Of a stretch of DNA of 64,000 bases, positions 12,885 through 54,264 are shown one piece after another. The stretch is taken from IMG/VR virus record IMGVR_UViG_3300025501_000001. One strand, written 5' to 3'. Under the pieces are notes generated by a model, which had not been told where the DNA came from, searched no databases, and saw nothing but the letters and a program-made list of their open reading frames with translations. The translations under genes and the position numbers were made by a program. Numbering within the stretch: the stretch's first letter is position 1; each line of letters opens with the position of its first letter. The stretch is from an uncultured virus (IMG/VR IMGVR_UViG_3300025501_000001) (Duplodnaviria; Heunggongvirae; Uroviricota; Caudoviricetes).

Positions 12885-13622
12885 TTGGCAAAGACCCGTA
12901 AAAGGGCTAAACCCCAAGCCCCCGCCGATCTCAATAAGGAGAACACCGCCCCCGCCTCGCCCGAGACTGAGGAAGTCGGCATCCCTTCCGCCCTCCGTGT
13001 CCGCCGGCGGTATACCCTTACACCCGAGGCCCTCGCCCAGCGCCGGGCGGCCTCCCACTCCCCCGCAAAATCGGCCGCGTCCGCCGGCAACCGCAACGCC
13101 TGGCGCCACGGCTCCTACGCAGCGAGCTTCATCAACAAGATGCGGCCCTGTCTATCGACCTGCCCCCATTACCCCTGCGAGCTCGTGGAAGAGGGCGAGA
13201 CGGCCCCGGGCGAGGACTGCCTCGACAAGGCGGAAGTCCTCAGGTTTTACCGGGCGGTCCATGATGCGATCGCCGAAAAGAAGTACGATGCCTTCAACGA
13301 GCTTGCGGCCCTCCAGATCGGCAACGCCATCAAAGTGATAGACATGCTCATGGAAGACCTGCTCCGCGACGGCACCGTAGTCAAGCGCGAGAAGCACGAC
13401 GCCAAAGACAACCTGGTCATCGAGTACGTCACGCACCCGTCCCTTCTCGCCCTGCCGAAACTGCTCGCCGATCTCGGCCTCTCCGCCGCCGAGTTCCTCA
13501 TCACCCCGCGCTCCCTGAAAAAAGCGAACGCGGAAGAGGAGCTGCCTAAGACGCTCGCCGATATGATGAGCCGGGCCGGCAGGGTCTTCAAGAAACCCTC
13601 CGGCGAGGGTGACGACGAATGA
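12885..13622 (+). CDS. Putative terminase small subunit
   Basis: GNRNAWRHG motif, HPSL..LGLS; lies just before TerL. Confidence 0.7.
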   Translation: MAKTRKRAKPQAPADLNKENTAPASPETEEVGIPSALRVRRRYTLTPEALAQRRAASHSPAKSAASAGNRNAWRHGSYAASFINKMRPCLSTCPHYPCELVEEGETAPGEDCLDKAEVLRFYRAVHDAIAEKKYDAFNELAALQIGNAIKVIDMLMEDLLRDGTVVKREKHDAKDNLVIEYVTHPSLLALPKLLADLGLSAAEFLITPRSLKKANAEEELPKTLADMMSRAGRVFKKPSGEGDDE

Positions 13623-13627
13623 AGAGC

Positions 13628-13828
13628 GAGCAAAGGAAGCATGGAGCATGGAGCCCGCTCGCTACGCTCGCTCTGGAGCATAGAGCAGAGGAAGCATGGA
13701 GATGTTTCTAACGTTGAACATTGAACATAGAACTTTGAACAGTTCTCTGCTCCGGAGCGCCGCAGGCGCGGGCTCCATGCTCCATGCTGCACTTGCTCCA
13801 TGCTCCATGCTCCATGCTGCTTTTGCTC
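13628..13828 (+). repeat. Heptamer palindromic element at TerS/TerL junction
   Basis: agcatgg arm, ttgaac arm, ccatgct arm. Confidence 0.9.
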
Positions 13829-13841
13829 CGCCGTGGGCGCC

Positions 13842-15935
13842 GTGATGGCCGGTTCCGTCGCCTATGCCCATCACGCCGCGGACGATGCCATAGAGCCCCT
13901 GGCGCTTCGCGACCTGCACCGCTCTATCATGGTCCCCCGCTCCGATTTCGAGGCGTGGCTCGCCCGCCACGACTGGACGTATCACCAGCTCGCCCGCGCC
14001 GAATTCCCTGCCCCCTATTCCTCCCTCGAGGAGTTCCAGCTCGGCTGCATCTGCGCGGACCCCTATCTCTGGTGCACCATGTTCCTGCGCGAGCCTGAGG
14101 ACCCCGACCATGACGAGCCGTACAACTTCTGGACCTTTCAGATCGAATCGCTCCGCTGGCGCGGCAGTGTCGTCCACAAGGACGCGGCCGAGATAGGCAA
14201 GACGCGCGAGATCGTCGCCCTGTCCCTCTATTACGCCTTTATCACGGCCAACGGCTCGGGTCTTGGAGGCGCTCCGCTCCAGACGCACCTGGACGAGATC
14301 ATCGAGGGCATGTACGACCAGATGCTTTGGAACCCGGACCTCAAGAAATCCCTCGTCCGCTGGAAGAAGCACCCGCACCACGCCTTTTATTTCTCTAATC
14401 ATTTTAAGATGGACTTCCGCCCCTCGGGCCACGACGGTGTAGCCTACAGGGGCGTCCACGTCCGCACGCTGGCATGGCGAGACGAGGCTGCCAAGGACAA
14501 GCACAAGCGCCAGTGGTCGGAATTCTGGAGGGCGCTCAAGCCCGGCTGCGCCGCCCGCATCTACTCCGTGCCGGACGGAGACCGCTCCTGCGAGTTCTAC
14601 AAGCTCGCCGAACGTGCCGCCCGTCAGCAACCGGCAAGCCCACGGAAGGTTCAAGGTTCAGGGTTTACGGATGTTCAAGGTTCAGAGTTCAAGGTTCAGG
14701 GTTCCGAAAGAGAGGATCGTATTAACGTTGAACATCGAACATCGAACATTGAACAGCCCTATGGCACCGCAGTCGATAATGGCTGGGGCGACACCCCTCC
14801 GAAGACAAGAGTGCGAGAGGAGTGTTGTCCATCAAATCTTGATGAGGAGGTCAAAGTTGAATCCTTCGAGGGCGTTTCAAAACATATTAAATCGCTCAAA
14901 TTTCGACTTTTTCAGTGGGGAAAAAGCCTTATGCCGAGTCCTTTCTGGACCCCGGAGCGAAAGAGATTTTACATCGAGCAATTCGGTGGCGAGGATTCTC
15001 CGGAATACAAGCACAACGTGCTCGGACTCGACGGCGATCCGGAGGATACTGTCTTTCCGTGGCACCTCTTCAGAGCATGTATAAAAGAGGTCCCCGATTA
15101 CCACTGCCTCAAGATCACCGTCGACTCCGCCAACAATGAGGTGATGGCCACCGGGTACCGGTGCGAGATTGTCTCCTCTGCCGAGGATATAGTACCTAAA
15201 CAGATATTCCTTCTGGAGACCGTCTACCGCAAATCGACCTTCTTCAACCTTGGCGATGATGGCGAGTCCGAGTTCCGCCGCCTCATCAAGGGCTTCTTCC
15301 TCTATGTCCCCGGCCTCAAGCGCGGCGGGGCAGACCTCGGCTTCTCGGGCGACCCCTCAGAGATCACCGTCACTCTCGTCCTCGGCCGCCGCGAGCGCAA
15401 GGTAGCGCGCCTCTACCTCAAGCACGTCACCTACGACCAGCAGTGCCAGGCTTTAGACGCGCTCGACGACCTCTACGGCGCCCCTTCCGTCTCCCCCGCG
15501 CCCCCCCAGGCCGCCTCCGACATCATCTGGGGCACGGACTTCGGCAACGCCGGCTCCGCCGTCGCCCACGACCTGCAGGGCCTCCCCCAGTATGCCCACA
15601 AGCACTACGAGGACCGCCTGCGCGGCTTCATGTTCGAATCGACCTCCGACAACGTAGACGAGGACGGCAACCCCATCATCGACGCGAAGACGAACAAGCC
15701 CGTCAAGATCACCCTCAAAGAGCTGGCGACGGACCTCCTCGTCAAGAAGATGCAGCGCCAGGAGCTCGAGTATCCTCCGGACCCCGACTACGTCTTCATG
15801 TATCCGAACCATACATGCCACGCGGGCGAGAAGCACAGGATCTACAAAAAAACGGACGACCACCTGATCGACAGCGACCGCGTCCAGAAACTGGCCGGGC
15901 TTTTATCTATGGAGACAGAGGACCTCTTCGCATGA
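13842..15935 (+). CDS. terL: Terminase large subunit with in-frame repeat insertions
   Basis: AAEIGKT Walker A-like, RDEAA Walker B, GADLG and DDHLIDS nuclease motifs. Confidence 0.85.
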   Translation: MMAGSVAYAHHAADDAIEPLALRDLHRSIMVPRSDFEAWLARHDWTYHQLARAEFPAPYSSLEEFQLGCICADPYLWCTMFLREPEDPDHDEPYNFWTFQIESLRWRGSVVHKDAAEIGKTREIVALSLYYAFITANGSGLGGAPLQTHLDEIIEGMYDQMLWNPDLKKSLVRWKKHPHHAFYFSNHFKMDFRPSGHDGVAYRGVHVRTLAWRDEAAKDKHKRQWSEFWRALKPGCAARIYSVPDGDRSCEFYKLAERAARQQPASPRKVQGSGFTDVQGSEFKVQGSEREDRINVEHRTSNIEQPYGTAVDNGWGDTPPKTRVREECCPSNLDEEVKVESFEGVSKHIKSLKFRLFQWGKSLMPSPFWTPERKRFYIEQFGGEDSPEYKHNVLGLDGDPEDTVFPWHLFRACIKEVPDYHCLKITVDSANNEVMATGYRCEIVSSAEDIVPKQIFLLETVYRKSTFFNLGDDGESEFRRLIKGFFLYVPGLKRGGADLGFSGDPSEITVTLVLGRRERKVARLYLKHVTYDQQCQALDALDDLYGAPSVSPAPPQAASDIIWGTDFGNAGSAVAHDLQGLPQYAHKHYEDRLRGFMFESTSDNVDEDGNPIIDAKTNKPVKITLKELATDLLVKKMQRQELEYPPDPDYVFMYPNHTCHAGEKHRIYKKTDDHLIDSDRVQKLAGLLSMETEDLFA
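14646..14755 (+). repeat. Heptamer element in-frame inside TerL
   Basis: Encodes KVQGSGFTDVQGSEFKVQG...NVEHRTSNIEQ. Confidence 0.9.
14784..14831 (+). repeat. CCTCCGAAG..GCGAGAGG hairpin, copy 1 (in TerL)
   Basis: Shared core with 21565-21616 and 55572-55613. Confidence 0.75.
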
Positions 15936-15944
15936 TGCAACAAT

Positions 15945-16074
15945 TGTTCAAGGTTCAAGGTTCAGGGTTCAAGGTTGAAGATCGAACATTGAACAGTCCC
16001 TTCAGGGTTCAAGGTTCAAGGTTCGGGGAAAAAGGGGGGTTTCAACGTTGAACATTGAACGTCGAACCTTGAAC
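15945..16074 (+). repeat. Heptamer element at TerL/portal junction
   Basis: GTTCAAG and TTGAAC arms. Confidence 0.9.
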
Positions 16075-18354
16075 GGTTTCGTCCGCCGCGTCCTCCGCGC
16101 CCTTGGCAAGGCACTCCCTGTCTTCCCCGGCGACGTGATGCCGGTAATACCGGCCGGGGCGCTCTCTCCCCAGGGCGGCTGGCAGCTCCGGCCCAACGAC
16201 GGCCAGGGCCTCCTCACCCCCTATTTCGCCAACTATATTGCCCGGAAGGTCGAGCCCTGGTTCTATGAATTCCTTCGCGAGGCAATTCCTGTTATCGACG
16301 CGGCGATCAGGCGGCTCGTCAGCCTCGACGGCCACCTCGTCGTCAAGGGGAACAATGCCGCCCTCGTCGAGGAGATCCGGGAATGGATGCACAACGTCAA
16401 GGTGAACGACATCCAGACGGGCCTCCAGGCGTTCCACCAGAGCCTCACGAACGAGGCTTTCGAGCAGGGCTTCGCCCTCGGAGAATGGGTGGTCAACGAG
16501 GAGCGCGATGACATAACCGGCCTGCGCACCGGCGACTCGAAATTCGTCAGGTTCCAGCGCACCCCCAAAGGCGTCAACATCTTCCAGCGGTCCGACACGG
16601 ACGTCAGCTTCCGCGAGTTGCGCCGGGAGCAGCTCATCTATTTCTCGATCGATAACGAAAACCAAAACCCCTACGGCTGTCCCCTTTTCCGGTCCTGCGA
16701 GTTCGTCGCGAAGATCCTCGCCACCATGCAGAACGCCCTCGGGAACCAGTGGGAAAGGTTCGGGGACCCTTCATTCTCGGTGATCTACAAGACCTCGAAG
16801 AAGGACGGCATGGACCTGGAGGCCCGCCGCAAGACGCTCGAGACCGACCTCAATACGGCGGTCAGGGCGAAGCGCGAGGGCCGCTCCGCCGATTTCGTCC
16901 GCGCCATCGACACCAATTCAGAAATCGAGATAGATGTCATCGGCGCCAAGGGCGAGATCATGTCGGTCGAAGAGCCGGCCCGCCACGTCCTCGAGCAGAT
17001 CATCGCAAAGTCCGGCCTGCCTCCCTGGATGCTCGGCATGCACTGGAGCTCCACCCAGGCCCTCGCCGGCGTCGAGGTAGAAGTACTCAAGTCGGACATC
17101 GCCACGCGCCAGGCGGCGAAGATGCCGCACTTCCACAACCTCGTCCGAAACTTGCTTCTCCTCCGGGGCCGCACCTGGAAGAGGGGCGACTGGTGGCTGG
17201 AGTGGGCGCAGGTCAATCTGGTCGACATCGAAAAACAGGCCCGCGCGCGTTTCCTGAATGCACAGGCGGACATGATGTCGCCCGCGAGCGCGCCCGCAAG
17301 CAAAAGCAGCAAAGGCAGCATAGAGCATAGAGCAAAAGCAGCAGAGAGCATGGAGCAAGGGAAGCATGGAGCAAAGGGCTCTAAAACTCTATGCTCTCTG
17401 CTCTCTGCTCAATGCTCTCACGCGAAGGAACTTCGCCGCTCCGTTGCCTGGCCGGCCCTGGACAAGGTCGAGAACGCCTATGCCGATCGCCTCGCCTCCG
17501 ACTGGTCCGACCTGCACAAGCAGGTCCTCACAATCCTTGAGCTTCCCGCTTCCAAGTCTCCCCATGGAAATGGCCGCGCGGTGGGCGTCATGGGCGAGGC
17601 GGAGACTGAGGCCGTCCTGCCGCTCACCCGCACGTCCTCGGGCGATCTGGCTGTCCGGGCGCAAGGCGCGGGTTCAGGGTTCAACCTTGAACATCGAACC
17701 TTGAACCTTGAACAGTCCTTTGCTCCATGCTCCATGCTCCATGCTTCCTCGGCTAAAGCAGACGACGACCTCTTCTCCTTCACCGAGGAGCAGCGCTCGG
17801 CCATCATGCAGGCCATGAGACAATTCATCGGCCGCTACGATAGCGACGATGCCGACTCGCCGGTGCGCAAATACTACGGCCAGGCATACTCGCTCGGGCT
17901 CATCCAGGCGGCGACGCTTGCCGGCAAGGAGCGCCCGATCCTCGATCTCATCAAGAACAGCCAGGTCTACGATCAACTCTGCACCGACGGCTTTGCCCTC
18001 GTCAAGGACGACGCGACGAAATCCATCGTCCAGAGGATCCTCCCCGAGATGGAAGCCCAGACCCTGGCCGGCACGAACCCTCGCCACGTCGCCACCAGGC
18101 TCGAATCCCTTTTCGGCTCCGCCAACTCCGATTGGGAGCGCCTCGCCCGCACGGAAATGACCTCCGCGGCGGAAGGCGCCAAGCTCGACGAATGGGGCGA
18201 GGAAGGCACGAAGAGGGTTGACTTCGTCCCCTCGCCCGACGCCTGCGAAGAATGTCAGGCCCTCGCCGGAGAGTACGACATCGACTCCTGCCCGATACCC
18301 GGCATTGGCACGCATCCCCGCTGTCGCTGCAGCACCGCCCCGGTGGCGGAATGA
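16048..18354 (+). CDS. Portal protein fused to MuF (gp30-like) head morphogenesis domain; true start uncertain
   Basis: Follows TerL; NPYGCPLF portal-like motif; ERLARTEM...ACEEC..HPRCRC MuF motif. Confidence 0.85.
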   Translation: MNIERRTLNGFVRRVLRALGKALPVFPGDVMPVIPAGALSPQGGWQLRPNDGQGLLTPYFANYIARKVEPWFYEFLREAIPVIDAAIRRLVSLDGHLVVKGNNAALVEEIREWMHNVKVNDIQTGLQAFHQSLTNEAFEQGFALGEWVVNEERDDITGLRTGDSKFVRFQRTPKGVNIFQRSDTDVSFRELRREQLIYFSIDNENQNPYGCPLFRSCEFVAKILATMQNALGNQWERFGDPSFSVIYKTSKKDGMDLEARRKTLETDLNTAVRAKREGRSADFVRAIDTNSEIEIDVIGAKGEIMSVEEPARHVLEQIIAKSGLPPWMLGMHWSSTQALAGVEVEVLKSDIATRQAAKMPHFHNLVRNLLLLRGRTWKRGDWWLEWAQVNLVDIEKQARARFLNAQADMMSPASAPASKSSKGSIEHRAKAAESMEQGKHGAKGSKTLCSLLSAQCSHAKELRRSVAWPALDKVENAYADRLASDWSDLHKQVLTILELPASKSPHGNGRAVGVMGEAETEAVLPLTRTSSGDLAVRAQGAGSGFNLEHRTLNLEQSFAPCSMLHASSAKADDDLFSFTEEQRSAIMQAMRQFIGRYDSDDADSPVRKYYGQAYSLGLIQAATLAGKERPILDLIKNSQVYDQLCTDGFALVKDDATKSIVQRILPEMEAQTLAGTNPRHVATRLESLFGSANSDWERLARTEMTSAAEGAKLDEWGEEGTKRVDFVPSPDACEECQALAGEYDIDSCPIPGIGTHPRCRCSTAPVAE
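17299..17419 (+). repeat. AGCA/TGCT heptamer element in-frame in the portal-MuF linker
   Basis: agcatagagcatag...ctatgctctctgctctctgct. Confidence 0.9.
17671..17746 (+). repeat. Heptamer element in-frame in portal-MuF
   Basis: Encodes GSGFNLEHRTLNLEQSFAPCSMLHA. Confidence 0.85.
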
Positions 18355-18357
18355 ACG

Positions 18358-18474
18358 GCAGCATGGAGCATGGAGCAAAAGCAGCATGGAGCATGGAGAT
18401 GTTCAAGGTTCGAGGTTCAGGGTTCAACGTTGAACATCGAACATTGAACAGCCCTTTGCTCTCTGCTCTCTGCT
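18358..18474 (+). repeat. Nested heptamer element
   Basis: AGCA, GTTC, GAAC, TGCT arms in order. Confidence 0.9.
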
Positions 18475-18492
18475 TCCCACCGGAGACATAAC

Positions 18493-19857
18493 ATGAAAAG
18501 CATACTCTTCATCGACAACAACCTCGCCCTCGACCACGCCGTCAAGCTCGCCGAGGATTACAAGGTCTTCCACTGCCCCGGCGGCTCCGGCGCTTACCCA
18601 TACCTCCAGGACCAGATATCGGGCGACGGCTTCCCGCTCACCTACGTGGAAGACTTCGGCTCGGTCCTCTACGACGTCGACATGGTCTATATCGTCGACT
18701 GCTTCCTCGGGGGCCTCGCGGACAGCCTGCGCAAAAAGGGCATCGCGGTATTCGGACCCTCCGCCGAGTGGACGCGCATCGAGAACGACCGCGTTTACGG
18801 CTGGAAGGCCCTCAAGGGCATGGGCATAGGCGTGCCCGACGGCGAGGTCGTCACCGGGATGAAAGGCGTCCTCGACTTCATCGAAGCCCACGAGGACAAG
18901 GACGAGAAGGACCCTCTCAAGAAGCTCCGCTTTTTCCTCAAGGTCGGCAAATATCGCGGCAACTTCCCGACCAAGGACGTCTCAACCGTCCTCGAGGCCC
19001 AAACTGCCCTCACCCAGGCGAACTTCGGCCCGTATCTCGACTCTCTCTGGTTCCTCATCAACTTGATGTCCCCGGGGATCGAAGTAGGCTTCGACGCCTT
19101 TTTCAACGGCAGGGAATTCATCCGCCCCTTCGCCTACACGATCGAGATCAAGGGCTCCGGGACCACGGCCCACTGGATCGACACGAACGGCATCGAGACA
19201 GAGTTTTTTCAGAAGATGCAGAAGTCCCTCGCCGATTCCGGCTATCGCGGCAACATCTCGATGGAGTTCCTCTGGGACGGCGAGCGCGTCTACGCCATCG
19301 ACCCGACGGCGCGCCTCCCCTTCCCCTGCTCGAGCCTGCAGGCGCACTACATCTCGAATTACAACGAGCTCGTCTGGAAGGTCGCGCACGGTGAGGACGT
19401 GGAGGTCCAGATCTCAGGCGGCTATGATTATGCCAGCCAGATCACGGTAGCGACCGACGACGATAAGCTCTTCCGCGCCATCCGCTTCCCGAAGGAACTG
19501 AAGCCCCAGGTCGGCTTCCGCCGCTGCGCTTTCAAGGAAGATGATTACTGGTTCGTCCCGGGGGATACGGTCGTGGCGACGGCCCTCGGCCAGGGCGACA
19601 CGTACCAAGCCTCCCTCGACTCGGCCGGCCGGGTGGCCCGGGAGATCCAGTGCAACAACATTTATTTCGACGGCGATTTTATTCGGGAGATGAACAAAAC
19701 CGTCGAGAAGCTCAACACGCTCGGAAAGGACTTTGCTTTCGGCGGACCGTCGACGGCGCCGCCGGCGAAGAACGCCTCCGACCTCTTGAACTTCGGCCCG
19801 CGCCACCAGAGATCCCGGATGTTCAAGGTTCAAAGTTCAAGGTTCAAGGTTCGGTAA
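18493..19857 (+). CDS. ATP-grasp ligase (PurD/GARS-like)
   Basis: GLADSLRKKGIAVFGPS..IENDR; GYRGNISME; DPTARLPFP. Confidence 0.8.
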   Translation: MKSILFIDNNLALDHAVKLAEDYKVFHCPGGSGAYPYLQDQISGDGFPLTYVEDFGSVLYDVDMVYIVDCFLGGLADSLRKKGIAVFGPSAEWTRIENDRVYGWKALKGMGIGVPDGEVVTGMKGVLDFIEAHEDKDEKDPLKKLRFFLKVGKYRGNFPTKDVSTVLEAQTALTQANFGPYLDSLWFLINLMSPGIEVGFDAFFNGREFIRPFAYTIEIKGSGTTAHWIDTNGIETEFFQKMQKSLADSGYRGNISMEFLWDGERVYAIDPTARLPFPCSSLQAHYISNYNELVWKVAHGEDVEVQISGGYDYASQITVATDDDKLFRAIRFPKELKPQVGFRRCAFKEDDYWFVPGDTVVATALGQGDTYQASLDSAGRVAREIQCNNIYFDGDFIREMNKTVEKLNTLGKDFAFGGPSTAPPAKNASDLLNFGPRHQRSRMFKVQSSRFKVR

Positions 19858-19925
19858 AGAGAAAGGGGTCAAGGCTTACGGATGTTCAAGGTTCAAAGTT
19901 CAAGGTTCAAGGTTCGGTAAAGAGG
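19816..19925 (+). repeat. Two tandem left (GTTC) arms without right arms
   Basis: cggatgttcaaggttcaaagttcaaggttcaaggttcggtaaagag twice. Confidence 0.9.
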
Positions 19926-20255
19926 ATGAGAGTCATCATCACCGAGGAAAACCTTCATCTCGTCGACCAGTACCAGAATTTATGGTTGGCAGAGCAGACC
20001 GCCGCGTGGATGCCCGACGGTACGATTTATCTCTACGCGCCGGCTCCCGAGAACCGGCTGGCACTTCAACGGGCCGGAGCGATCACGCACGAAGCCGTCG
20101 AATACGTCCTCATCCACAAAATAGGTCGTTGCATTTGGTCCGTCTGCTGCAATCTCTCCCATTATTTCTGCAACCTGGTGGAGATTGTGGTTTCGCTCGG
20201 GACGACCTTGACGCTCCGATCAAAGGAGTTTTGGAGCTGGCAAAAATGGACTTAA
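19926..20255 (+). CDS. Hypothetical protein lying between separated element arms
   Basis: MRVIITEEN...ITHEAVEY (HExxE, metallopeptidase-like). Confidence 0.6.
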   Translation: MRVIITEENLHLVDQYQNLWLAEQTAAWMPDGTIYLYAPAPENRLALQRAGAITHEAVEYVLIHKIGRCIWSVCCNLSHYFCNLVEIVVSLGTTLTLRSKEFWSWQKWT

Positions 20256-20260
20256 TGCGA

Positions 20261-20400
20261 GGCGTCCAACCTTGAACATTGAACATAGAACCTTGAACGC
20301 CCCCAAGGCGTCCAACCTTGAACATTGAACATAGAACCTTGAACGCCCCCAAGGGAGGCAACCTTGAACATCGAACATAGAACCGCCCCGCGAAGGGGCA
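20261..20400 (+). repeat. Three right (GAAC) arms without left arms
   Basis: caaccttgaacattgaacatagaaccttgaacgcccccaagg twice plus a variant. Confidence 0.9.
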
Positions 20401-20460
20401 AAAATATTGCAACGATTTACCAGCCCATTTCACTCTTCCGCGCTACAGTGATTTTTAACA

Positions 20461-20522
20461 TAGCTTAAGGTTTGGTAAAGAGGGGGGTTTTAACGTTGAA
20501 CATTGAACATCGAACATTGAAC
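20461..20522 (+). repeat. Partial heptamer element
   Basis: Loop plus ttgaac arm. Confidence 0.8.
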
Positions 20523-20535
20523 GGAGCGTTGATAG

Positions 20536-20661
20536 ATGGCGACTAAGGCCAAGGGTAAAACGGAGAAAATCGGGAAGGTGACCACCGGCAAGAAGAAACA
20601 GTTTGCCGGTCTCGCCGTAGAAGGCGAGAAGGCAGCCACCGCCGCGAAAACGGAGGGTTGA
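20536..20661 (+). CDS. Small basic protein with N-terminus similar to the next gene
   Basis: MATKAKGKT vs MATKAKDKT. Confidence 0.5.
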   Translation: MATKAKGKTEKIGKVTTGKKKQFAGLAVEGEKAATAAKTEG

Positions 20662-20664
20662 CAG

Positions 20665-20946
20665 ATGGCGACCAAAGCGAAGGACAAGACAGGGAAGTTT
20701 ACCAGGGCAACTGCTGCAGCCCCTCCCCGCTCCCCCGCCGCTCCTCGCTCCGGCGCCGTCAGCGGCTCGGACATCGTGGCCGCCATTGACGCGGAAGACC
20801 GGAAAAAACAGGACGCCCGGGACCTCGCGGCCCTGGAGGCCAAGGAGGCCGCGAAGAAGGAAGTGCCCCTCCCCGCCGCCAGCTCCGGCGCCGTCCGCGG
20901 CCAGGACGTCATTAAAACACTGCGGCAAAAAGGGATGAAGATATGA
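20665..20946 (+). CDS. Hypothetical protein
   Basis: GGAGG SD; stop overlaps next ATG. Confidence 0.6.
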   Translation: MATKAKDKTGKFTRATAAAPPRSPAAPRSGAVSGSDIVAAIDAEDRKKQDARDLAALEAKEAAKKEVPLPAASSGAVRGQDVIKTLRQKGMKI

Positions 20947-22562
20947 AAACCGGGATAAAGACCTTTCGCTTTATGGGGTCGAAGCAGGACAGCGCCGCCG
21001 GCGCCGATACCACCCCCACCGCCGAGCAGCTCGCGAAGATCAACCTGCTCACCAAGCGCGCCTTCGCGGCAGACGAGCTTTACGTGCGCCAGATGCGCCT
21101 CGCCCACAACGCCATAGACAGGGACGAGGAGCGGTTTACCGAGGGGATGATCGCGAACTTTGCGGCGACCGCCGTTAGAAAGACGCTCCTCATGGACCAC
21201 GACAAGTACGATACCTCCCGGAGCGCCCTGGGCAAGTTCTTTGACGTCGAGATCGAGAAAATGTCTCCTGCGGAAGCCGAAAAGGCGACCGGGGAGACCT
21301 TCAGGCTCCCCCCTACCGTCGACCAGGTCATGTTCCTCAGCCCGTGGTATTACATCCCCAGGGCCGCCGTCGACAAGCAGACGATCGTGAAGATCGACGC
21401 GGGCGTCTTCGATTTTACCTCCATCGGCTTCCGCGCGGAGACGCTCGTGCCCGTATGCGACGACATGGGCAACCACCTCTATTGCGAGTACCGGGGCAGG
21501 GGCGAGATGACCGAAGGGTCCTACGTCTACCTCGGGGCCCAGCAGGGCGCATCGTCCAAGGAATTGGGGGGGGGAAACCCCTCCGAAGGACAAGAGGCGA
21601 GAGGCGTGTCCCCCCATCCGCTTTACGAGAAAAGGGTCGTCGCCTTTCACACGACGCCAATGGCGGACCCCCGCACTGCATGGGACGGCGCGGCCTCCCG
21701 GGCAGCGGTCGCGAAGTGGGCATCTTCCGACGGCTCCGGCGACAAAGACAAGGTCGACTGGACGAAGTATGCGAAGGCCTTCGCCTGGTTCGACGACCAG
21801 AACCCTCACGCCTTCGGCTCTTACAAGCTCCCCCATCACGACGTCGTCAGCGGGGAGCTCCGGGTCGTCTGGAACGGCGTCCACGGCGCCATGGCCGCCC
21901 TTCACGGCGGCAGGGGAGGCGTCGACATCCCGGCCGCCGACCAGGACGGCGTCTACAATCACCTGTCCAAAGAATATGCGCTGTTCAAACAGACCCCTCC
22001 TCCAAAGGGACTCGATTTTGAGGATTGGGGCGAAGAATACAAAAATCCCGACAAAGGAGGGACCGGAACCATGAAGAACCTGGTCGCAAAACTAGCGGCA
22101 GCTTTCGGCAAGGCATTCACCGAAGACGAGGAAAAACTCTTTGGCGAAATAAAGGCGCTCGTTGAAGCGAAGGACACCGAGGTAGGCACGCAGAAAACGA
22201 GAATCGCCGAGTTCGAGGCGCGCATCGCGGCGCTTACCCCGCTGGCCGATGACGGCAAGGCCTACCGCGACGGCCTCGTCACGTCGTACGTGATGTATAA
22301 GGCGAAGCTCGGAGAATGCGCGGAGACGCCGGAGGCCCAGAAGGTCGTCAAGGACGTGATCGTCGCTTACCCCGTCGATTTCCTGAAATCCGAGGTCGCC
22401 CACCTCCAGGCCCGGGTAAACGAGAAATTCCCGAAGACCAAGGGCGAGCTGAACGGCGACATGCGGCAGGACAAGACCGGGGAGGGCGGCGAGGCCAAGA
22501 GCTGGAAGGAAGACAACCCGCTCGTCCCGAAAGAGACGAAAGAAGCGGTGACGACCGCGTAA
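20943..22562 (+). CDS. Prohead protease/scaffold protein
   Basis: IDRDEERF, LMDHD, TSIGF, EGSYVYLGAQ; coiled-coil C-terminus. Confidence 0.8.
   Translation: MKTGIKTFRFMGSKQDSAAGADTTPTAEQLAKINLLTKRAFAADELYVRQMRLAHNAIDRDEERFTEGMIANFAATAVRKTLLMDHDKYDTSRSALGKFFDVEIEKMSPAEAEKATGETFRLPPTVDQVMFLSPWYYIPRAAVDKQTIVKIDAGVFDFTSIGFRAETLVPVCDDMGNHLYCEYRGRGEMTEGSYVYLGAQQGASSKELGGGNPSEGQEARGVSPHPLYEKRVVAFHTTPMADPRTAWDGAASRAAVAKWASSDGSGDKDKVDWTKYAKAFAWFDDQNPHAFGSYKLPHHDVVSGELRVVWNGVHGAMAALHGGRGGVDIPAADQDGVYNHLSKEYALFKQTPPPKGLDFEDWGEEYKNPDKGGTGTMKNLVAKLAAAFGKAFTEDEEKLFGEIKALVEAKDTEVGTQKTRIAEFEARIAALTPLADDGKAYRDGLVTSYVMYKAKLGECAETPEAQKVVKDVIVAYPVDFLKSEVAHLQARVNEKFPKTKGELNGDMRQDKTGEGGEAKSWKEDNPLVPKETKEAVTTA
21565..21616 (+). 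repeat. CCTCCGAAG..GCGAGAGG hairpin, copy 2 (in protease)
   Basis: gggggaaacccctccgaaggacaagaggcgagaggcgtgtccccc. Confidence 0.75.
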
Positions 22563-22587
22563 CAAAGAAAATAAAGGAGGATAGAAC

Positions 22588-23346: not shown

Positions 23347-23347
23347 A

Positions 23348-23475: not shown

Positions 23476-23493
23476 GCCTTTTGGAGCGCAGCG

Positions 23494-43096: not shown

Positions 43097-43100
43097 ACCG

Positions 43101-44684: not shown

Positions 44685-44692
44685 TCAATTTT

Positions 44693-45217: not shown

Positions 45218-45279
45218 ATTCGATTTTATATCGTTGCACGGACAGCGATGAAAAGCAATCTCTGTTTTGAGGCGCCCTT

Positions 45280-45324
45280 TTTTGCAATCCCCTGCCGTAC
45301 GATTTCCTCTTTTTCTGCTATTTC
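45280..45324 (+). promoter_or_regulatory. Putative late promoter, copy 2
   Basis: TTTTGCAA-N4-CTGCCGTAC-N15-TGCTATTTC. Confidence 0.7.
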
Positions 45325-45371
45325 TGAAGCATGGCCGATAGTTCCGTAAAAATCATCAAAGGAGAATAACG

Positions 45372-45863: not shown

Positions 45864-46032
45864 GGTGCACGACCCATGCCTGGGCGTGGGTAGCCCAGTC
45901 GAAATTTCCTCCGGCCCCAATTCATTAATTGCACGATTCAATAATTCCGTCATTCCAAAAGGGACTTATTTTGTAATTCCCTCTTGAATGCGCTTCTGGT
46001 AGAATGTGAGAAAAGCAATAGAGGAGGACAAT

Positions 46033-46950
46033 ATGCGGCCAATCTCAAAAAAATCCTGGCTGGGTCTGGGTAGAGCAATTTTGGCTGGAAGCATCCTCAT
46101 AATATTAATCGGTTGCGGTGCAGGAACCTATGTACCTGACCCCGGTTCCGTAAAGCAGGTTATGCGTTATGATGGGGCCGGGCTCCTACTTGCTTGCAGA
46201 GCAGATGACTGCCCCGGCCGGTGGCTGTCGACCTTTGGGCTGCGGCCCGTGGATCAGGCAGCCGTAACGGGAATAGGCTGGTGGCCTCCAGGCGTAACAA
46301 TACAGGCTGTAGACCTAGACGCGCCCGTTTTCGTCAGGAAGGTCCGCGGGCCGGCGCAGACCGCCGGGGTAATGCTCGGGGATAGAATTATAGAAATAGG
46401 TGGCATACCAATTACCTCAATACGCGACATGGCCGCCTTGGCCCCCGCCGTGGCCGATCGGACGTATTCAATTAAGGTAGTAAGAGGCGAAGCGGAGATG
46501 ACATTTCAAATAACCGCGGCACCAATGTTAACGGTCTACTCTCTTGACGAGCTGAAGGTAGCAGCGGACAGGTTCGATGAGGCTAAAGTCTTTAGGTCCC
46601 TTGCAAAACTAGACAACAGGGTAGATCCTATATCAAAGGGGCCGCTGTACTTTTTTGACCTCAATGTGTGCAATAATTTAGGTGCGGCCGAGGGCCGCAG
46701 AGTGCTAGAGGAACAAGGCAGGCGCGCGGCGGTTGGCTCCTTGGTCGGCGCCGCGCTCGGCGCGGGCCTCGGATATTCAACGGGTCGCGCCGTCGGTCTG
46801 GGCAACTCGGCATCTGGCGGAATAGCCGCTGCAGGGGCCTCCAGCGGTGCTGCAGCGGGTGGTATAACGGGGGCCGCATCCGTGGTTAATCAGGTTGATA
46901 CTCTCCTGTACAATTGCATGATAAACCGAGGCTACAAGATGCTGTACTAG
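46033..46950 (+). CDS. Lipoprotein with PDZ domain and glycine zipper
   Basis: LIGC lipobox; GPAQTAGVMLGDRIIEIGG; GAALGAGLG..CMINRGY. Confidence 0.75.
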   Translation: MRPISKKSWLGLGRAILAGSILIILIGCGAGTYVPDPGSVKQVMRYDGAGLLLACRADDCPGRWLSTFGLRPVDQAAVTGIGWWPPGVTIQAVDLDAPVFVRKVRGPAQTAGVMLGDRIIEIGGIPITSIRDMAALAPAVADRTYSIKVVRGEAEMTFQITAAPMLTVYSLDELKVAADRFDEAKVFRSLAKLDNRVDPISKGPLYFFDLNVCNNLGAAEGRRVLEEQGRRAAVGSLVGAALGAGLGYSTGRAVGLGNSASGGIAAAGASSGAAAGGITGAASVVNQVDTLLYNCMINRGYKMLY

Positions 46951-46979
46951 GCCGGCGGCAGTTCGCGCTCATTATTTTC

Positions 46980-47008
46980 TTGACATAGCCTCTAAGCTGC
47001 CGTAGCCT
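46980..47008 (+). promoter_or_regulatory. Sigma70-like promoter
   Basis: TTGACA-N17-TAGCCT. Confidence 0.55.
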
Positions 47009-47080
47009 ATTATTGCTACGATCTATCGGGGCTGCCCTTGGCCTCACGAAAGGGATTTTCTATTTTAAGGGCTGAAGTGT

Positions 47081-47162
47081 CCCGAGTGCGCTCATAAAAC
47101 CGGTTTTTGACCGGGCCGCGAGGCATGGGCCGGCTTCCGATAGAGCCGTAGCAGCACTCGGG
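47081..47162 (+). ncRNA. C4/CI-like antisense RNA candidate 1
   Basis: CCCGAGTGC/GCACTCGGG closing stem; loop CCGATAG complementary to CTATCGG at 47023 and 47197. Confidence 0.65.
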
Positions 47163-47212
47163 CTTTTTGCGTGCCGGCTAAAACCGAGGCTAAAAACTAT
47201 CGGAGGTGCAGT

Positions 47213-47602
47213 ATGAGGCAACTGCAAGGAGTGGTAAAGGGGCGGTGCGAGCATATTCACCATTGCCCGCTCTGTGACAGGCTCAAGCGTATCGTCAGGG
47301 CCAACGCGAACAATCTTCGGCTCAATCTCTACGGCCTGGCCCGGCCGAATGGCTGGATAGTCTGGCCGAAGGAGATTCTATACGATGTCCTCGTCCCCCT
47401 CTTCAAGATCGAGGAGGCCGCCTCGGCCTTCCATGTCCGCAGGACACAAAGCATGACCGAAGACGAGGCCGATGCCTACGCCGCCGCACATCTCTTAGCG
47501 GAGCCCTGGAGGCCCGAGGGCGCCCCCGAGGCAGACCGGTTCCGGCCGGAGCTCACGCTGGTCATGGGCGGTCTGGCACCGAGGGGGCCTGGCGGCCGGT
47601 GA
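47213..47602 (+). CDS. Hypothetical protein
   Basis: GGAGGT SD and ATG. Confidence 0.6.
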   Translation: MRQLQGVVKGRCEHIHHCPLCDRLKRIVRANANNLRLNLYGLARPNGWIVWPKEILYDVLVPLFKIEEAASAFHVRRTQSMTEDEADAYAAAHLLAEPWRPEGAPEADRFRPELTLVMGGLAPRGPGGR

Positions 47603-47675
47603 CCGTACCGCATATTTGCGAAAAGTGCGGTATAAAATAATTAGCCCTTACCGCACTTTTCCGACAAATTACCCC

Positions 47676-47704
47676 TTGACATGGGGTTTTATGGAGGTTA
47701 GACT
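47676..47704 (+). promoter_or_regulatory. Sigma70-like promoter
   Basis: TTGACA-N17-TAGACT. Confidence 0.6.
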
Positions 47705-47746
47705 CTCTGCGGAATGAACCAGAACTGTACATTTACAAATACATGT

Positions 47747-47815
47747 TTTCCCCGAGTGCGCCCATGTGGTGAGGCCTGGGCCGGCTTGTCTGGGCCGATT
47801 CCACACTCGGGGAAA
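47747..47815 (+). ncRNA. C4/CI-like antisense RNA candidate 2
   Basis: TTTCCCCGAGTG/CACTCGGGGAAA stem; shares GAGGC.TGGGCCGGCTT with copy 1. Confidence 0.65.
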
Positions 47816-47852
47816 TCTTTTATTATCACAATTCAGCAAGTGACAGGCAAAG

Positions 47853-48584
47853 ATGCCCATAGCGGATGACGGCTACAAAAAGGCCATAGATCAAACAAGA
47901 ACCTGCACAAAATGCGGAAAGGAAAAGCCATTCACGGCTGAATATTGGTACATGAGGCGAGGAGGGCGGAAATGCAAAGAATGCTGCCGGGCTGGATATG
48001 ATGAATGGTACGCGAATAATAAAGAAAAGGTTAAGGAATGGAGAGCAAAGAATGCTGCAAAACTTAAGAAACACAGCCATACTTATTACCTTAAAAACCG
48101 CAGGAAACTCATTAAGCAGTCCATAGAAAGGCAAAAGGAATACAGAAAAAGCAATCCGGAATGGCGCGACAAAAAGCGCCGCATCCAAAAAGCCTGGTGC
48201 GCCGCGAACCCGGAAAGGCGCCGCGAGCACTGCCGCGCAACGCACGAGCGGCATCCAGAGACTACCCGCAGAGGCGACGCCAAATCGCGGGGCGAGCTCC
48301 GGGACTGTTACCTTAAGTTCGTTCTAAGGCGGCGGGGCATAGATCCAACTCCACAGACAATAGAGATTGAACGCGAGAAGCTGCAATTGAGACGGCTTAT
48401 AAAACAGATCAAGGAGGCTATGCATGGGTCTGATTCAGCAGGAAATAAAGGAACTGCGGCAGTTGTTGGCGGATGTGAAGGCCAAGCGCATAACCGGAGA
48501 GGAACTGGATGCTCAGATAAAGGTATACAGCCAGATCGAGAAAAGGACCAACCAGTTCCTACAGTCCGTCGCCTTGGCCGCTAA
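47853..48584 (+). CDS. Basic Cys-rich protein
   Basis: CTKCGKEK..CKEC; Lys/Arg-rich helix. Confidence 0.6.
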   Translation: MPIADDGYKKAIDQTRTCTKCGKEKPFTAEYWYMRRGGRKCKECCRAGYDEWYANNKEKVKEWRAKNAAKLKKHSHTYYLKNRRKLIKQSIERQKEYRKSNPEWRDKKRRIQKAWCAANPERRREHCRATHERHPETTRRGDAKSRGELRDCYLKFVLRRRGIDPTPQTIEIEREKLQLRRLIKQIKEAMHGSDSAGNKGTAAVVGGCEGQAHNRRGTGCSDKGIQPDREKDQPVPTVRRLGR

Positions 48585-48831
48585 GTATGCCGAGAAGGGG
48601 AATAACGCCTATAAGCGCCTCGTCGCGGCCAACCTGATAGGCGACGGGGAGGCGATAGAGATAACACCGACGCATGAGACGGAAAAGATACTGTGCCGTG
48701 CTCAGGATAACGTGCTGATCGAAAGGGGGGAGTGCCTTGATTATTCGGGCCAGGAAGAGCACCGCTTCGTCTGCAAGGGATGCGAAGCCGGGGAAGTTAC
48801 GAAGAAACTTTGCCTGCCCGACGGTGTATGA
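48424..48831 (+). CDS. Hypothetical protein
   Basis: AAGGAGG SD. Confidence 0.65.
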   Translation: MGLIQQEIKELRQLLADVKAKRITGEELDAQIKVYSQIEKRTNQFLQSVALAAKYAEKGNNAYKRLVAANLIGDGEAIEITPTHETEKILCRAQDNVLIERGECLDYSGQEEHRFVCKGCEAGEVTKKLCLPDGV

Positions 48832-48864
48832 CGCGCGGTCGGGGCAAACCAAGAGGAGAGAAGC

Positions 48865-49218
48865 ATGGAGGAGCAGAAGGAGATAAGGTACACCAGCAGA
48901 TCAAACGCGGTAGAGACGTTTTTCTTTAAGGGCGCGATGTACACGGTTCTCGATAATGCCGGCGCAGTGTTAATGCCTGACGCGGAGAACGATCATGGAC
49001 ACATAATCTACTCGATAAATATGATCATGCCCGCGCCAGGGGAATCCGGCGGGGCCGGTGAACCCATTGAAAGAGAAGTTCTAGGTCTCAAGGAACTTCA
49101 CATGGACGGGCGCATGGGCAGGGTCTCCGGGTTCTACGAGACAGAGAAAGAGGCATGGGACGCAGCAGCGGCCTTCTTGGAAGACGTCGCTAAAGCCATA
49201 AGAGCTCGGAGCCTATAG
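48865..49218 (+). CDS. Hypothetical protein
   Basis: GAGGAG SD. Confidence 0.6.
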   Translation: MEEQKEIRYTSRSNAVETFFFKGAMYTVLDNAGAVLMPDAENDHGHIIYSINMIMPAPGESGGAGEPIEREVLGLKELHMDGRMGRVSGFYETEKEAWDAAAAFLEDVAKAIRARSL

Positions 49219-49220
49219 CA

Positions 49221-49496
49221 ATGAACAAAAATAACATGCGAGACGGCGGCGGCAATCCCTTCAATGATGCAAGTGCGCAGGAAGTCGACGAGGCTTTTTT
49301 AAAACTTTGGCTTGAGGACCCTGGCTTTCGCGAAAGGTCGCTTGATCGCCTCGCGGACATGATAGCCGCCAAGCCGGGAGACGTGCTCGTCGGGATCACG
49401 GTGACGCAGGCGATGATAGACGAGGCCGTCAGGATGCAGAAGTTTCTTGTCTTCTTCGCACAGGCCATGGGAAACGGACCCATGCAATCCCAATGA
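49221..49496 (+). CDS. Hypothetical protein
   Basis: Adjacent coupled ORF. Confidence 0.55.
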   Translation: MNKNNMRDGGGNPFNDASAQEVDEAFLKLWLEDPGFRERSLDRLADMIAAKPGDVLVGITVTQAMIDEAVRMQKFLVFFAQAMGNGPMQSQ

Positions 49497-50509
49497 ACCA
49501 TCTAACACTAAATCAGGAAGGAGATATCACCATGGAAAAGAACACGGATTTTACGATCAGCAACATGACGGGCCTGGAAATAGCCCTAATGGAAGAAAAC
49601 AAAAGTGCGGTAGAAACCTATTTGGAGAGGATCGACCGGGAGACCTCGAACGAGATGTTTAGGGTCATAGGGCAGCACTTCGGGTTCCCGACAGTGGAAA
49701 TCCAGGGGGTCAGAAGGGCCTCCGCAGCCCATCTTGCCAAACTTTTGGGGTACAAAAACCCCCAAGGCCTCCTACATTTGCTCGATCGGTATGGTATTTC
49801 GGGGGTAATGGTGGGGGGATTTATACATTCTGTACGTATCCAAATAAAACAAGCACTTAGCCTCGACCCCGACGATAACCGCTCGATATTATTGGAGTAC
49901 AAAGCGCTCCTCATAGCGGCCATGCAGAGCACCAACGAAGAGGCAAAGCCCATTAAACTCTACCTCCTGCGGTGTGAGTACGTCGCGCGCGTCGGCGCCG
50001 TGGCCTTGCGGCCTGGAACGCAACCTGCCACTTCGATAGACAACCCCATGGACAGGATGACCATGCAAAAGCTTGCAAAGCAGGCAAACGGGGGCGACCA
50101 ATGGGCCATCTACGAGCTGAAGACGCATTATGGCTGGCCGGTGGAGCTCATAGCGGGCCTCACCGAGCCCGACGTCTCAGAGGTGGCCGCCACAATCTCC
50201 AGGCTGCTCAGAATAGCCTACGAAGAAAAGCTCACCGATTTCGGCCTCGAAGTTGGCGAGACATCTACCGGTTATTACGTCTATGGTAGAACCTACTGCC
50301 TCCACGAAACCTTTCTCAATATAATAGAGAAGCACCATCTGCAACGATTTTTCTCCCACCCTCAGAACCTTGGATGGATCATGGCGCGCGAGGCCGAGGC
50401 CCTTGCGGCCCTCGGGTGGGAACGTAAAAAGCACACAACATATCAAGGAGACCGCAGCAGGTACAGGTACGAGTATGCCCGGCCCAAGCCGGAACTGGCT
50501 AAAAAATAA
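49493..50509 (+). CDS. Antirepressor-like DNA-binding protein (start possibly 49532)
   Basis: HLAKLLGYKNP...LLIAAMQSTNEEAK Bro-like region. Confidence 0.6.
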   Translation: MNHLTLNQEGDITMEKNTDFTISNMTGLEIALMEENKSAVETYLERIDRETSNEMFRVIGQHFGFPTVEIQGVRRASAAHLAKLLGYKNPQGLLHLLDRYGISGVMVGGFIHSVRIQIKQALSLDPDDNRSILLEYKALLIAAMQSTNEEAKPIKLYLLRCEYVARVGAVALRPGTQPATSIDNPMDRMTMQKLAKQANGGDQWAIYELKTHYGWPVELIAGLTEPDVSEVAATISRLLRIAYEEKLTDFGLEVGETSTGYYVYGRTYCLHETFLNIIEKHHLQRFFSHPQNLGWIMAREAEALAALGWERKKHTTYQGDRSRYRYEYARPKPELAKK

Positions 50510-50521
50510 AGGGGGCCTCAA

Positions 50522-50737
50522 ATGCGATTAACCGTTTCCGATCTTTCAAGGGTGAACGTGACGTATAATGGGGACCTGGGTCATATCAGGCTCGAATGCC
50601 AGACCTGCAGTCATGTATGGTCCCCCAATCAGCCCCCAGGGGGCAGACGCTGGTACAACAACTGGTATCGCTGCCCGAATGGGTGTAATGCGGAACTCAT
50701 AGTAAATCTGAGAAAAGGAGCAACGCCGTCCCAATAG
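50522..50737 (+). CDS. Small Zn-ribbon protein
   Basis: CQTC..CPNGC. Confidence 0.55.
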   Translation: MRLTVSDLSRVNVTYNGDLGHIRLECQTCSHVWSPNQPPGGRRWYNNWYRCPNGCNAELIVNLRKGATPSQ

Positions 50738-50788
50738 CTAACCGATTTCAAAGGGCACCCCCTGAACCATGCGCCTTCGGGCGCAAGC

Positions 50789-50824
50789 GGGCCGTGGTCC
50801 TTCGGGGCTGCGGCCCTTCTTTTT
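50789..50824 (+). terminator. Intrinsic terminator
   Basis: GGGCCGTGGTCC-TTCG-GGGCTGCGGCCC-TTCTTTTT. Confidence 0.7.
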
Positions 50825-53496: not shown

Positions 53497-53502
53497 GCAA
53501 CA

Positions 53503-53712
53503 GATGTTCAAAGATGTTCAAGGTTCAAGGTTCAAGGTTCAGAAGAACGTTCAAGGTTCAAGGTTCAGGGTTCAAGGTTTAAAAAACGGGGTTTTAACAT
53601 TGAACGTTGAACATAGAACCTTGAACAGCCCCGAAGGGGCAACCTTGAACAGCCCCGAAGGGGCAACCTTGAACGCCCCCAAAGGGGGCAAGAACAGCCC
53701 CGAAGGGGCAAC
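53503..53712 (+). repeat. Heptamer element spanned by ORF 53504..53716
   Basis: GTTC/GAAC arms and four GC hairpins. Confidence 0.9.
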
Positions 53713-53715
53713 ATA

Positions 53716-54264
53716 GTGGATAACTTCCCTATCCTCTCCTGCCCACCCCGCAAGGACATCGAGATCAGCGGAGTACCCAACCTGATCATCGACGACAAGG
53801 ACGCTCTGTACCAGTCGAGCCGCCTCCGCTCGGCCCGCCCCCGCCGCCAGTTCAAAAACATCGTCCACGACAAGGCGAGCTACGCCGACTGGGCCCTGGT
53901 CGACGTGTTCGAGAGGGTTACCGTGGCCGGCGGCAGCCTTCCCTTTTACTGGCAGAACCTCGTATGGGCCAGGGTCTTCCCCCAGTGGCAGCCCTTGACC
54001 TCATACGGTGTCGGCGCTATTGTCAGACCCCCCGGCGCGATAAACGACCACTCCTATGTCGCCATAGTGGCCGGCACGAGCGGGGTCTCCCCCGGTCCCG
54101 TATTCCCGACCGGGCCCATGGCCACCGTCACGGACGGCTCCACCCTCGTCTGGCAGGAGATGACGGCCATCGTCCGCTTCAGCGACGACCCGCCGGTTAT
54201 CTACAAGGGCGATCCGGACAATCCCCTGATATGTTCTATATCTTACAATCTCCGGGAGATTTAG
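53716..54264 (+). CDS. Minor (distal) tail protein
   Basis: Follows TMP; GGSLPFYW. Confidence 0.65.
   Translation: MDNFPILSCPPRKDIEISGVPNLIIDDKDALYQSSRLRSARPRRQFKNIVHDKASYADWALVDVFERVTVAGGSLPFYWQNLVWARVFPQWQPLTSYGVGAIVRPPGAINDHSYVAIVAGTSGVSPGPVFPTGPMATVTDGSTLVWQEMTAIVRFSDDPPVIYKGDPDNPLICSISYNLREI

Follow-up and report, generated by a model that had tools for sequence, protein, structure and literature searches.

Heptamer-repeat hairpins at the late-gene junctions of an uncultured tailed phage and the reading frames that run through them

The phage and its genes

The 64,000-nucleotide (nt) stretch of DNA analysed here, referred to throughout as the window (IMG/VR record IMGVR_UViG_3300025501_000001), represents a tailed phage or prophage with a GC content of 58%. 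It carries numerous hairpin-forming elements made of facing arrays of 7-nt repeats, located between genes and within them. At the gene junctions, small open reading frames (ORFs) made mostly of repeat, here called mini-ORFs, lead from the stop codon of one gene to the start codon of the next more often than expected. This pattern is real and non-random in this phage, is explained by known principles and is not a general property of the elements.

Matches to PHROGs and Pfam were found for primase, integrase, Mor-like activators, head decoration, endolysin, a portal-minor head fusion (16048-18354), tape measure, minor tail, NlpC/P60 and tail J genes. The product of gene 13845-15935, designated terL below, shows a weak fold match to large terminases (T4 gp17, HK97 TerL; best E 8e-4), which was obtained with a low-confidence structural model (pLDDT 54). 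Based on their positions, gene 12885-13622 is a putative small terminase gene and gene 25521 a putative major capsid gene. A homolog search with the product of gene 28058 returned the protein itself alone, and the corresponding search with NlpC returned 4 distant relatives. Scanning the window for promoters and terminators gave results at chance level.

Architecture and folding of the elements

The window contains 83 arm matches grouped in 30 clusters. The late operons or regions hold 81 of the 83 and the segment at 37.4-50.8 kb holds none. Elements lie between genes, at start codons or shortly downstream of them, and also within coding sequences: terminase, NlpC and gene 34942 each contain in-frame elements, as does portal at two places, in protein segments that are variable or absent in relatives. 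In family 1, GTTCAAG units form the left arm and NNTGAAC units (TTGAAC) the right arm, with a purine-rich loop between them. Family 2, with AGCATGG left arms and TGCTCCA right arms, often surrounds family 1. Repeated arms are spaced by small GC palindromes, and four units are present in 27 of the 35 right arms. The left-arm consensus is stop-free in all frames; the right arm has a TGA in every unit, and because 7 = 1 mod 3, three such units block every frame. Each TTGA, as read from the sequence, is a TTG start overlapping a TGA stop, and the loops are purine-rich immediately before the first TTG of the right arm.

The right arms are opened by stop-breaking units (TCGAAC or TAGAAC). Among the 27 four-unit right arms, the break is at position 3 only in 16 and at position 2 only in three, two units are broken in two arms, and six arms are unbroken. 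The initial annotation, made from the sequence alone, had described every third unit as broken in many right arms. It had also stated that the variant removes the stop from one frame. The TAG form relocates the stop to an already blocked frame and does not delete it. The four unbroken arms that it listed are correct, and it overlooked those at 36891 and 63556.

For the seven elements folded, hairpin z-scores range from -3.8 to -7.5 on both strands, and an internal loop recurs at the variant unit in five of the seven sense-strand folds. Of 19 junction inserts, 18 fold at -33 to -113 kcal/mol and one at -14 kcal/mol. A known structured RNA family was rejected, as Rfam gave 0 matches at gathering score in the window. 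Contigs from independent DNA runs span several elements without differences (e.g., 17702-19845 and 20325-24558), and the bridged elements are therefore not assembly artefacts. DNA excision or inversion was also rejected: the joints listed, 15 of 63, connect one repeat to another, have short sides and were attributed to the assembly graph, and none of them cleanly removes a single element.

The individual elements are as follows (SD, Shine-Dalgarno sequence).

331-404, + strand: family-1 element, in frame inside ORF 12-653.
13619-13845, + strand: nested element at the junction of gene 12885-13622 with terL; mini-ORFs 13619-13711 (ATGA entry) and 13702/13714-13845 (TGA overlapping the terL start).
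14646-14754, + strand: family-1 element within a variable loop of the large terminase (13845-15935), whose frame it keeps.
15932-16074, + strand: terL-portal element; mini-ORF opened by an ATG overlapping the terL TGA and stopping at TGA 16049, which overlaps TTG 16048 in the portal frame.
17299-17419, + strand: family-2 element (AGCATGG / TGCTCCA), in frame in the portal-minor head fusion.
17670-17745, + strand: right arms of both families, read in frame within the portal-minor head fusion; the break in the stops is at position 2.
18351-18491, + strand: repeat-made mini-ORF of 46 amino acids that joins the end of portal to the next gene, opening on an ATG that overlaps the portal TGA and finishing 1 nt short of ATG 18493; nested hairpin of -55 kcal/mol.
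19821-20522, + strand: two left and four right arms around a small ORF (19926-20255 or 19982-20275); the first arm is read as the C-terminus of gene 18493-19857.
23347-23497, + strand: nested element; mini-ORF 23390-23497, whose TGA overlaps GTG 23494; no entry start near the upstream stop.
24468-24559, + strand: element with mini-ORF 24468-24521 and ATGA at both ends; ATG 24518, in the hairpin loop, is the start of the following gene, whose frame continues through the right arm.
25373-25453, + strand: uncoupled element preceding the SD-led gene 25521.
26493-26648, + strand: element with a fully stopped right arm (26603), preceding an SD-led gene.
26827-26946, + strand: element with a fully stopped right arm; the frame from its last TTG ends on ATGA 26943.
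27398-27537, + strand: two-step relay; ATGA, 29 amino acids, TTGA restart at 27484, 17 amino acids, then TGATG onto ATG 27537.
28058-28179, + strand: element that follows an ATGA overlap and is read in frame as N-terminal sequence of gene 28058-28549; the break in the stops is at position 2.
28546-28770, + strand: double element that follows an ATGA overlap and is read in frame as N-terminal sequence of gene 28546-31347.
31664-31834, + strand: family-2 mini-ORF of 56 amino acids with ATGA at both ends, preceding the endolysin gene.
32338-32524, + strand: nested element; mini-ORF 32366-32524, whose TGA overlaps GTG 32521 / ATG 32524.
34249-34477, + strand: three mini-ORFs (34249-34335, 34338-34385, 34382-34477) ending on ATGA 34474.
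35104-35421, + strand: gene 34942-35271 contains family-2 arms in frame; a family-1 element with a fully stopped last arm (35376) follows, preceding an SD-led gene.
36706-36934, + strand: element with fully stopped arms (36799, 36891), preceding an SD-led gene.
53504-53716, + strand: repeat-made mini-ORF of 70 amino acids from the tape-measure stop to GTG 53716; it starts 7 nt past that stop, and its TAG overlaps the GTG.
54266-54397, + strand: family-2 element; a TTG-led frame of 43 amino acids ends on ATGA 54394.
55002-55163, + strand: element before the NlpC/P60 tail gene; the in-frame NlpC starts before the conserved motif are solely TTG 55130 and 55151, inside the right arm.
55367-55492, + strand: family-1 element, in frame inside the NlpC/P60 domain.
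59736-59830, + strand: left arm and family-2 right arm, in frame in the N-terminus of gene 59736-61061.
61070-61179, - strand: the sole element in reversed orientation; three unbroken TGA units before the SD-led ATG 61192.
63432-63693, + strand: element with many unbroken TGA units, uncoupled.

Reading frames through the elements

The mini-ORFs at 18351-18491, 31664-31834 and 53504-53716 have the coordinates and the stop/start overlaps that the initial annotation gave them. Its right-arm frames at 13843, 23495, 26944, 27535, 32522 and 34475 likewise stop on the next start, the one at 26944 running solely from the last unit of a fully stopped arm. We assessed coupling with two tests. In the exit test, a frame that is open through the right arm must be in frame with the next start or must stop between -4 and +1 of it. 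This was the case at 12 of 14 junctions compared with 6.0 expected (P=9e-5), six of the 20 junctions having been left out with all frames closed. With starts from a blind gene caller, which chose nearly identical ones, the result was 11/17 compared with 6.0 (P=0.003). In the route test, each junction was compared with 27 frame-shifted versions of itself. A stop-to-start route with at most two initiations is present at 10 of the 20 junctions (3.15 expected, P=3e-5), or at 7/20 (1.6 expected) when only ATG and GTG starts are allowed, and an automated version of the test gave 9/18 (3.56 expected, P=5e-4). Coupling in the window is above expectation in both tests (exit 12/14, routes 10/20). At six of the 20 junctions the element is an N-terminal in-frame insertion or contains the start of the gene, and frame keeping is therefore compulsory. 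In the strictly intergenic subset, routes with at most four initiations are found at 9 of 14 junctions compared with 4.4 expected (P=3e-4).

The order of the units follows the same pattern: it keeps the needed frame open in all 11 informative arms (3.53 expected, P=2e-6; 8 of the 19 arms are uninformative). The uncommon break at position 2 is found in arms 14727, 17686, 23447 and 28127, and the needed frame is opened each time. A frame is open in 27 of 35 right arms read on the sense strand, compared with 6 of 26 left arms read antisense (p=3e-5); the strand contrast is weaker when all units are counted (30/136 vs 15/112, p=0.10). The SD match of the downstream gene is longer behind closed arms (8, 5, 7, 6, 8, 4) than behind open arms (3, 4, 4, 4, 6, 4, 5, 0, 4; p=0.007). 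The junction mini-ORFs are predicted to be translated; for the in-frame elements within conserved genes, translation follows necessarily if the genes themselves are translated.

Junctions in related phages

Relatives of the phage, some of them close kin, were fetched by their terminase. Among them, the junction preceding terL has a gap of at most 6 nt in 17 of 22, and the terL-portal junction in 10 of 24, of which eight are 4-nt overlaps, two with TTG. The junction corresponding to 26943-27537 is similarly tight in 8/13. All three junctions remain linked in the window. After the putative capsid gene a gap of this size is present in 1/13, and there the arms in the window are closed. Many close relatives have no elements, their genes simply overlapping, and in the element-free relatives L191 and L372 TTGA overlaps start portal. 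The window retains the ancestral ATGA at the end of terL, and its portal N-terminus aligns with that of L189 from TTG 16069, which corresponds to the GTG start in L189. GTG 16135 and ATG 16138 are present as well, yet the homology with L189 reaches upstream to TTG 16069. Inspection by eye revealed no slippery heptamer in the frame needed for a programmed -1 frameshift at the portal junction.

In L200 and L196, different heptamer-like arrays make stop-to-start mini-ORFs at the terL-portal junction, and in L039 the NlpC frame is likewise open through the right arm. The relatives in which we compared insertion sites share 55-75% protein identity with the window and are too distant for filled and empty sites to be aligned. 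No flanking repeat of 12 nt or longer was found at three junctions checked; the elements at 31664 and 24468 have ATGA at both ends.

Two further observations concern these phages. In L039, a reversed family-1 element (2431-2555) takes the place of the family-2 element of the window before a lysin ~91% identical to that of the window, and its ATGA-led frame is open throughout, stopping ~16 nt downstream of where the lysin begins. Phages both related and unrelated to the window (L191-L214, L024, L043, L044 and L049) have at least six other heptamer units, at junctions as well as in the same terminase and portal loops.

The repeat family beyond the window

The repeat unit is present in at least 131 stretches from Acidobacteriota, Geobacter, Syntrophobacterales and others. 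In genomes, 73 of 95 sense arms are fully stopped, and among 109 metagenome arms the variant unit lies before sense genes in 30 and at antisense gene ends in 21. Strong SD sequences are present at 5 of 18 element junctions in the window compared with 40 of 69 in other viral loci (p=0.03); of the 16 downstream genes in a second phage that carries these repeats, 12 have one. Family-wide coupling was rejected, with tests at chance in other phages, metagenome arms and genomes, and relaxing the test windows left the outcome for these loci unchanged. The idea that chains of TTGA feed genes behind closed arms was rejected as well: in genomes, the last TTG shares the frame of the gene in 11 of 38 cases, which is at chance level. 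The claim of the initial annotation that the elements preserve coupling holds as a statistically supported translatable route in this phage and not for the same family elsewhere.

Interpretation

We consider it fairly probable that the elements are tolerated repeat insertions that selection has filtered for keeping a frame or coupling, similar in action to the MIRUs discussed below. A widespread bacterial class of inverted 7-nt repeat hairpins would have colonised the late operons of this phage. A hairpin of about -33 to -113 kcal/mol would block a ribosome scanning after termination, and an elongating ribosome would melt it. At an ancestrally coupled junction with a weak SD downstream, the survivors would be copies with a TTGA restart or with a stop-free frame, obtained by changing one TTGAAC unit at the needed position. 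Copies that broke a weak-SD coupled junction, or a gene, would be purged. The ribosome would terminate, restart at the overlapping ATG, read the repeat as a junk peptide and restart on the next gene. Surviving copies within genes would add unstructured residues, and fully stopped arms would be tolerated where a strong SD lies downstream. The act of translation would matter rather than the peptide, with coupling as the survival filter, a role that has been proposed for MIRUs too. The variant unit already exists in the family and is used here, not invented. Because the pattern is absent elsewhere, where TCGAAC and TAGAAC are uncoupled, the data argue for a selective filter and not for a built-in function of the element.

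Several results weigh against this reading. Outside the window the exit test is at chance, both in other viral loci (4/13, 5.0 expected) and in genomes (3/20, 5.0 expected), also for arms chosen for the same variant unit (8/29, 7.3 expected). The route test gave 2/16 in the second phage (2.3 expected), 2/53 in other phages (2.9 expected), 5/97 in cellular genomes (6.3 expected) and 2/20 in one further set (1.4 expected). In other genomes, too, the variant unit is most often the third. Inserts at the orthologous junctions of relatives show 4/17 compared with 3.5, and those at the terL-portal junction alone 4/9 compared with 2.3 (P=0.14). Within the window, five of the 20 junctions lack an entry start close to the upstream stop, several routes require TTG restarts or three to five initiations, and the excess in the strictly intergenic subset at no more than two initiations is modest (5/14, 1.8 expected, P=0.011). 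The asymmetry between arms is confounded with element orientation. Junctions free of arrays, used as controls, also exceed the null (22/122 vs 13.4 and 21/127 vs 14.2), which is therefore somewhat lenient, and the P values are inflated because the window was picked after the pattern had been seen there.

The absence of replication in other phages and genomes, the commonness of the variant unit without coupling, the excess in array-free controls and the post hoc choice of the window all favor an alternative in which constraint is limited to the intragenic and N-terminal copies. The mini-ORFs between genes would then be by-products of a variant third-unit consensus and of frequent ATGA, and the downstream genes would initiate de novo, from their own SD or with the purine-rich loop, which lies just before the first TTG, serving as SD for that right-arm TTG. 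However, the intergenic subset is still above expectation (5/14 vs 1.8 and 9/14 vs 4.4), SD strength follows closed versus open arms, and such starts would sit beside or inside strong hairpins. We regard this alternative as unlikely. A greater role is given to the elements if they form an evolved translational rheostat, in which open arms relay and closed arms insulate, tuning virion protein stoichiometry, and TTGA recurring every 7 nt allows a ribosome arriving in any frame to stop and restart. The concentration of arm matches in late operons (81/83), the strong-SD genes behind closed arms, the copy-specific order of units and the TTGA overlaps that start portal in the element-free L191 and L372 are in keeping with it. 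On the other hand, many close relatives manage with plain gene overlap, the last TTG of closed arms is out of phase with the next gene in genomes (11/38 in frame), and other heptamer families without TTGA fill the same sites; we judge the rheostat improbable. Equally doubtful, in our estimate, is the related proposal that the 7-nt period is itself a frame adapter, with this phage tuning its copies as relay or insulator to set virion protein ratios. Because 7 = 1 mod 3 and TTG overlaps TGA, an arm stops all frames, or passes exactly one when one unit is changed, and portal and NlpC would even start on a repeat-made TTG.

The arrays could instead be nucleic-acid sites, for a nucleoid or repeat-binding protein, for RNA processing or for removal from RNA, with the reading frame secondary and the variant unit marking a 3x3 internal loop or a binding phase. 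The paired arrays of Geobacter metallireducens, proposed as IHF/HU-type sites in the available text of one report (PMC2700814), the internal loop at the variant unit in 5/7 sense-strand folds and the presence of the variant before both sense genes (30) and antisense gene ends (21) among the 109 metagenome arms are consistent with such sites. Yet they do not predict the frame statistics, and if the elements were cut out there would be no need for a frame, whereas all copies found inside conserved genes are in frame. Neither a PF05635 match in 34 neighbouring small proteins nor a clean single-element removal among the 15 of 63 joints listed was found. As the main explanation this seems very improbable, but a role of this kind can coexist with a selective filter on tolerated insertions.

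Comparison with known repeat systems

In the accessible parts of two reports, mycobacterial interspersed repetitive units (MIRUs) are described as 40-100 bp units with 4-nt flanking repeats whose insertion is thought to affect expression little (PMC12548453, PMC3184786). They insert at start codons, with their own ORF coupled to the gene at -4 spacing (PMC12548453), and the ends of this ORF overlap the adjacent genes (PMC3184786). The phage elements at 31664, 24468 and 18351 resemble them as short operon repeats at start codons with an ORF overlapping both flanking genes. They differ in build, with a pair of 7-nt arrays that face each other, stop codons in the right-arm consensus, families nested within one another and TTG starts inside the repeat, and in that coupling is not family-wide. 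No Mycobacterium was present among the 80 titled genome loci carrying the repeat, which is set apart from MIRU by its heptamer build and not by alignment.

Convergent heptamer pairs have been described in Xanthomonas (GGGAATC) and Nostoc (PMC4692102) and in Beggiatoaceae (TAACTGA; PMC4679880), and paired 7-8-nt arrays in G. metallireducens (PMC2700814). The roles proposed in the portions of these papers available to us are G-quadruplex (G4) formation, DNA binding and post-transcriptional functions, and a reading-frame relay is not among them (PMC4692102, PMC2700814, PMC4679880). Shared features are the 7-nt units, the preference for four of them, inverted pairs between co-directional genes, some intragenic copies and arrays near start codons. 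The phage differs in its units, GTTCAAG and AGCATGG, and in their high density in the late operon; unlike the Xanthomonas and Nostoc repeats, these units have no GGG tract and thus no G4 motif. By build, the phage elements belong with the convergent heptamer arrays; they work like MIRU and are not MIRU by sequence.

Two other systems share parts of this behavior. In integrons, an attC hairpin blocks ribosomes, and a short ORF through the hairpin restores downstream translation by termination-reinitiation, as shown experimentally in the text available (PMC8876359). The likeness is an intergenic hairpin relieved by a short ORF, the relay in the phage being predicted from sequence. The difference is that attC is a recombination site with its own integrase; no attC features were seen in the phage, which was read without a search aimed at them. 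Rickettsia palindromic elements and ORF-fused MITEs and REPs, as presented in the consulted part of one source (PMC3184786), are palindromic repeats in frame in, or at the ends of, protein genes. The phage also has in-frame palindromic repeats in protein genes, but its copies are tandem heptamers. Overlap coupling between genes in general is treated in part of PMC6728339. In the literature searched (titles and opening lines, with few subscription papers), no heptamer array was described as a ribosome relay.

Arrays of heptamer hairpins are common in many bacteria, and there is no consensus on their function. With ~20 junction copies, located in operons whose ancestral overlaps are known, this phage shows how such repeats can accumulate harmlessly in essential operons. 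Such junctions also allow a direct reporter test of ribosome read-through. For annotation, caution is advisable, as the repeats contribute part of the gene starts, N-termini and apparent signal peptides in this phage.

Additional features of the window

Leu-rich, signal-peptide-like N-termini follow the in-frame repeat in genes 28058, 28546 and 59736 of the window and at 12414-12875 in L010. The hydrophobic stretch of the three window genes is partly read from DNA resembling family-2 right arms, and export signals may be created or lengthened by the repeats. The left arms of family 2 (e.g., 18360, 26501 and 54290) are AGCATGG arrays that put GGAG 7-8 nt before ATG in successive frames, and they often finish with GGAG-ATG where a family-1 left arm begins; such arms may supply internal initiation sites. 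Right arms together with GC palindrome units are tandemly duplicated at 20260-20384, 36795-36918 and 53617-53712, with periods of 46 and 24 nt, and the 24-nt copies preserve the frame of the 53504 mini-ORF.

Small genes bracketed by left and right arms in a cargo-like arrangement are present at 19884-20522 in the window, 8282-8783 in L009 and 12342-12840 in L010, and gave no family match above the cut-off. The PF05635 four-helix bundle was found in none of 34 neighbouring or bracketed small proteins, from loci ascertained on short-loop pairs, nor in the general protein scans of the window. An IVS or four-helix-bundle cargo cassette was rejected given the lack of a PF05635 match in the 34 proteins.

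A GC hairpin followed by a T run at 25245-25284, terminator-like by eye and absent from the + strand scan, precedes the element before the putative capsid gene. Genes for an ATP-grasp/PurD-like protein, a weak glycosyltransferase match and a hexapeptide transferase are interleaved with the head genes at 18493-25183. Between the tail genes and the tape-measure gene lies a 13-kb block (37400-50800) without any heptamer arm, which encodes helicase, PAPS-reductase-like and ParB-like genes and may be a separate insertion. Near-identical repeats of 21-34 nt are present in this block at 37765-37843 and 44065-44127.

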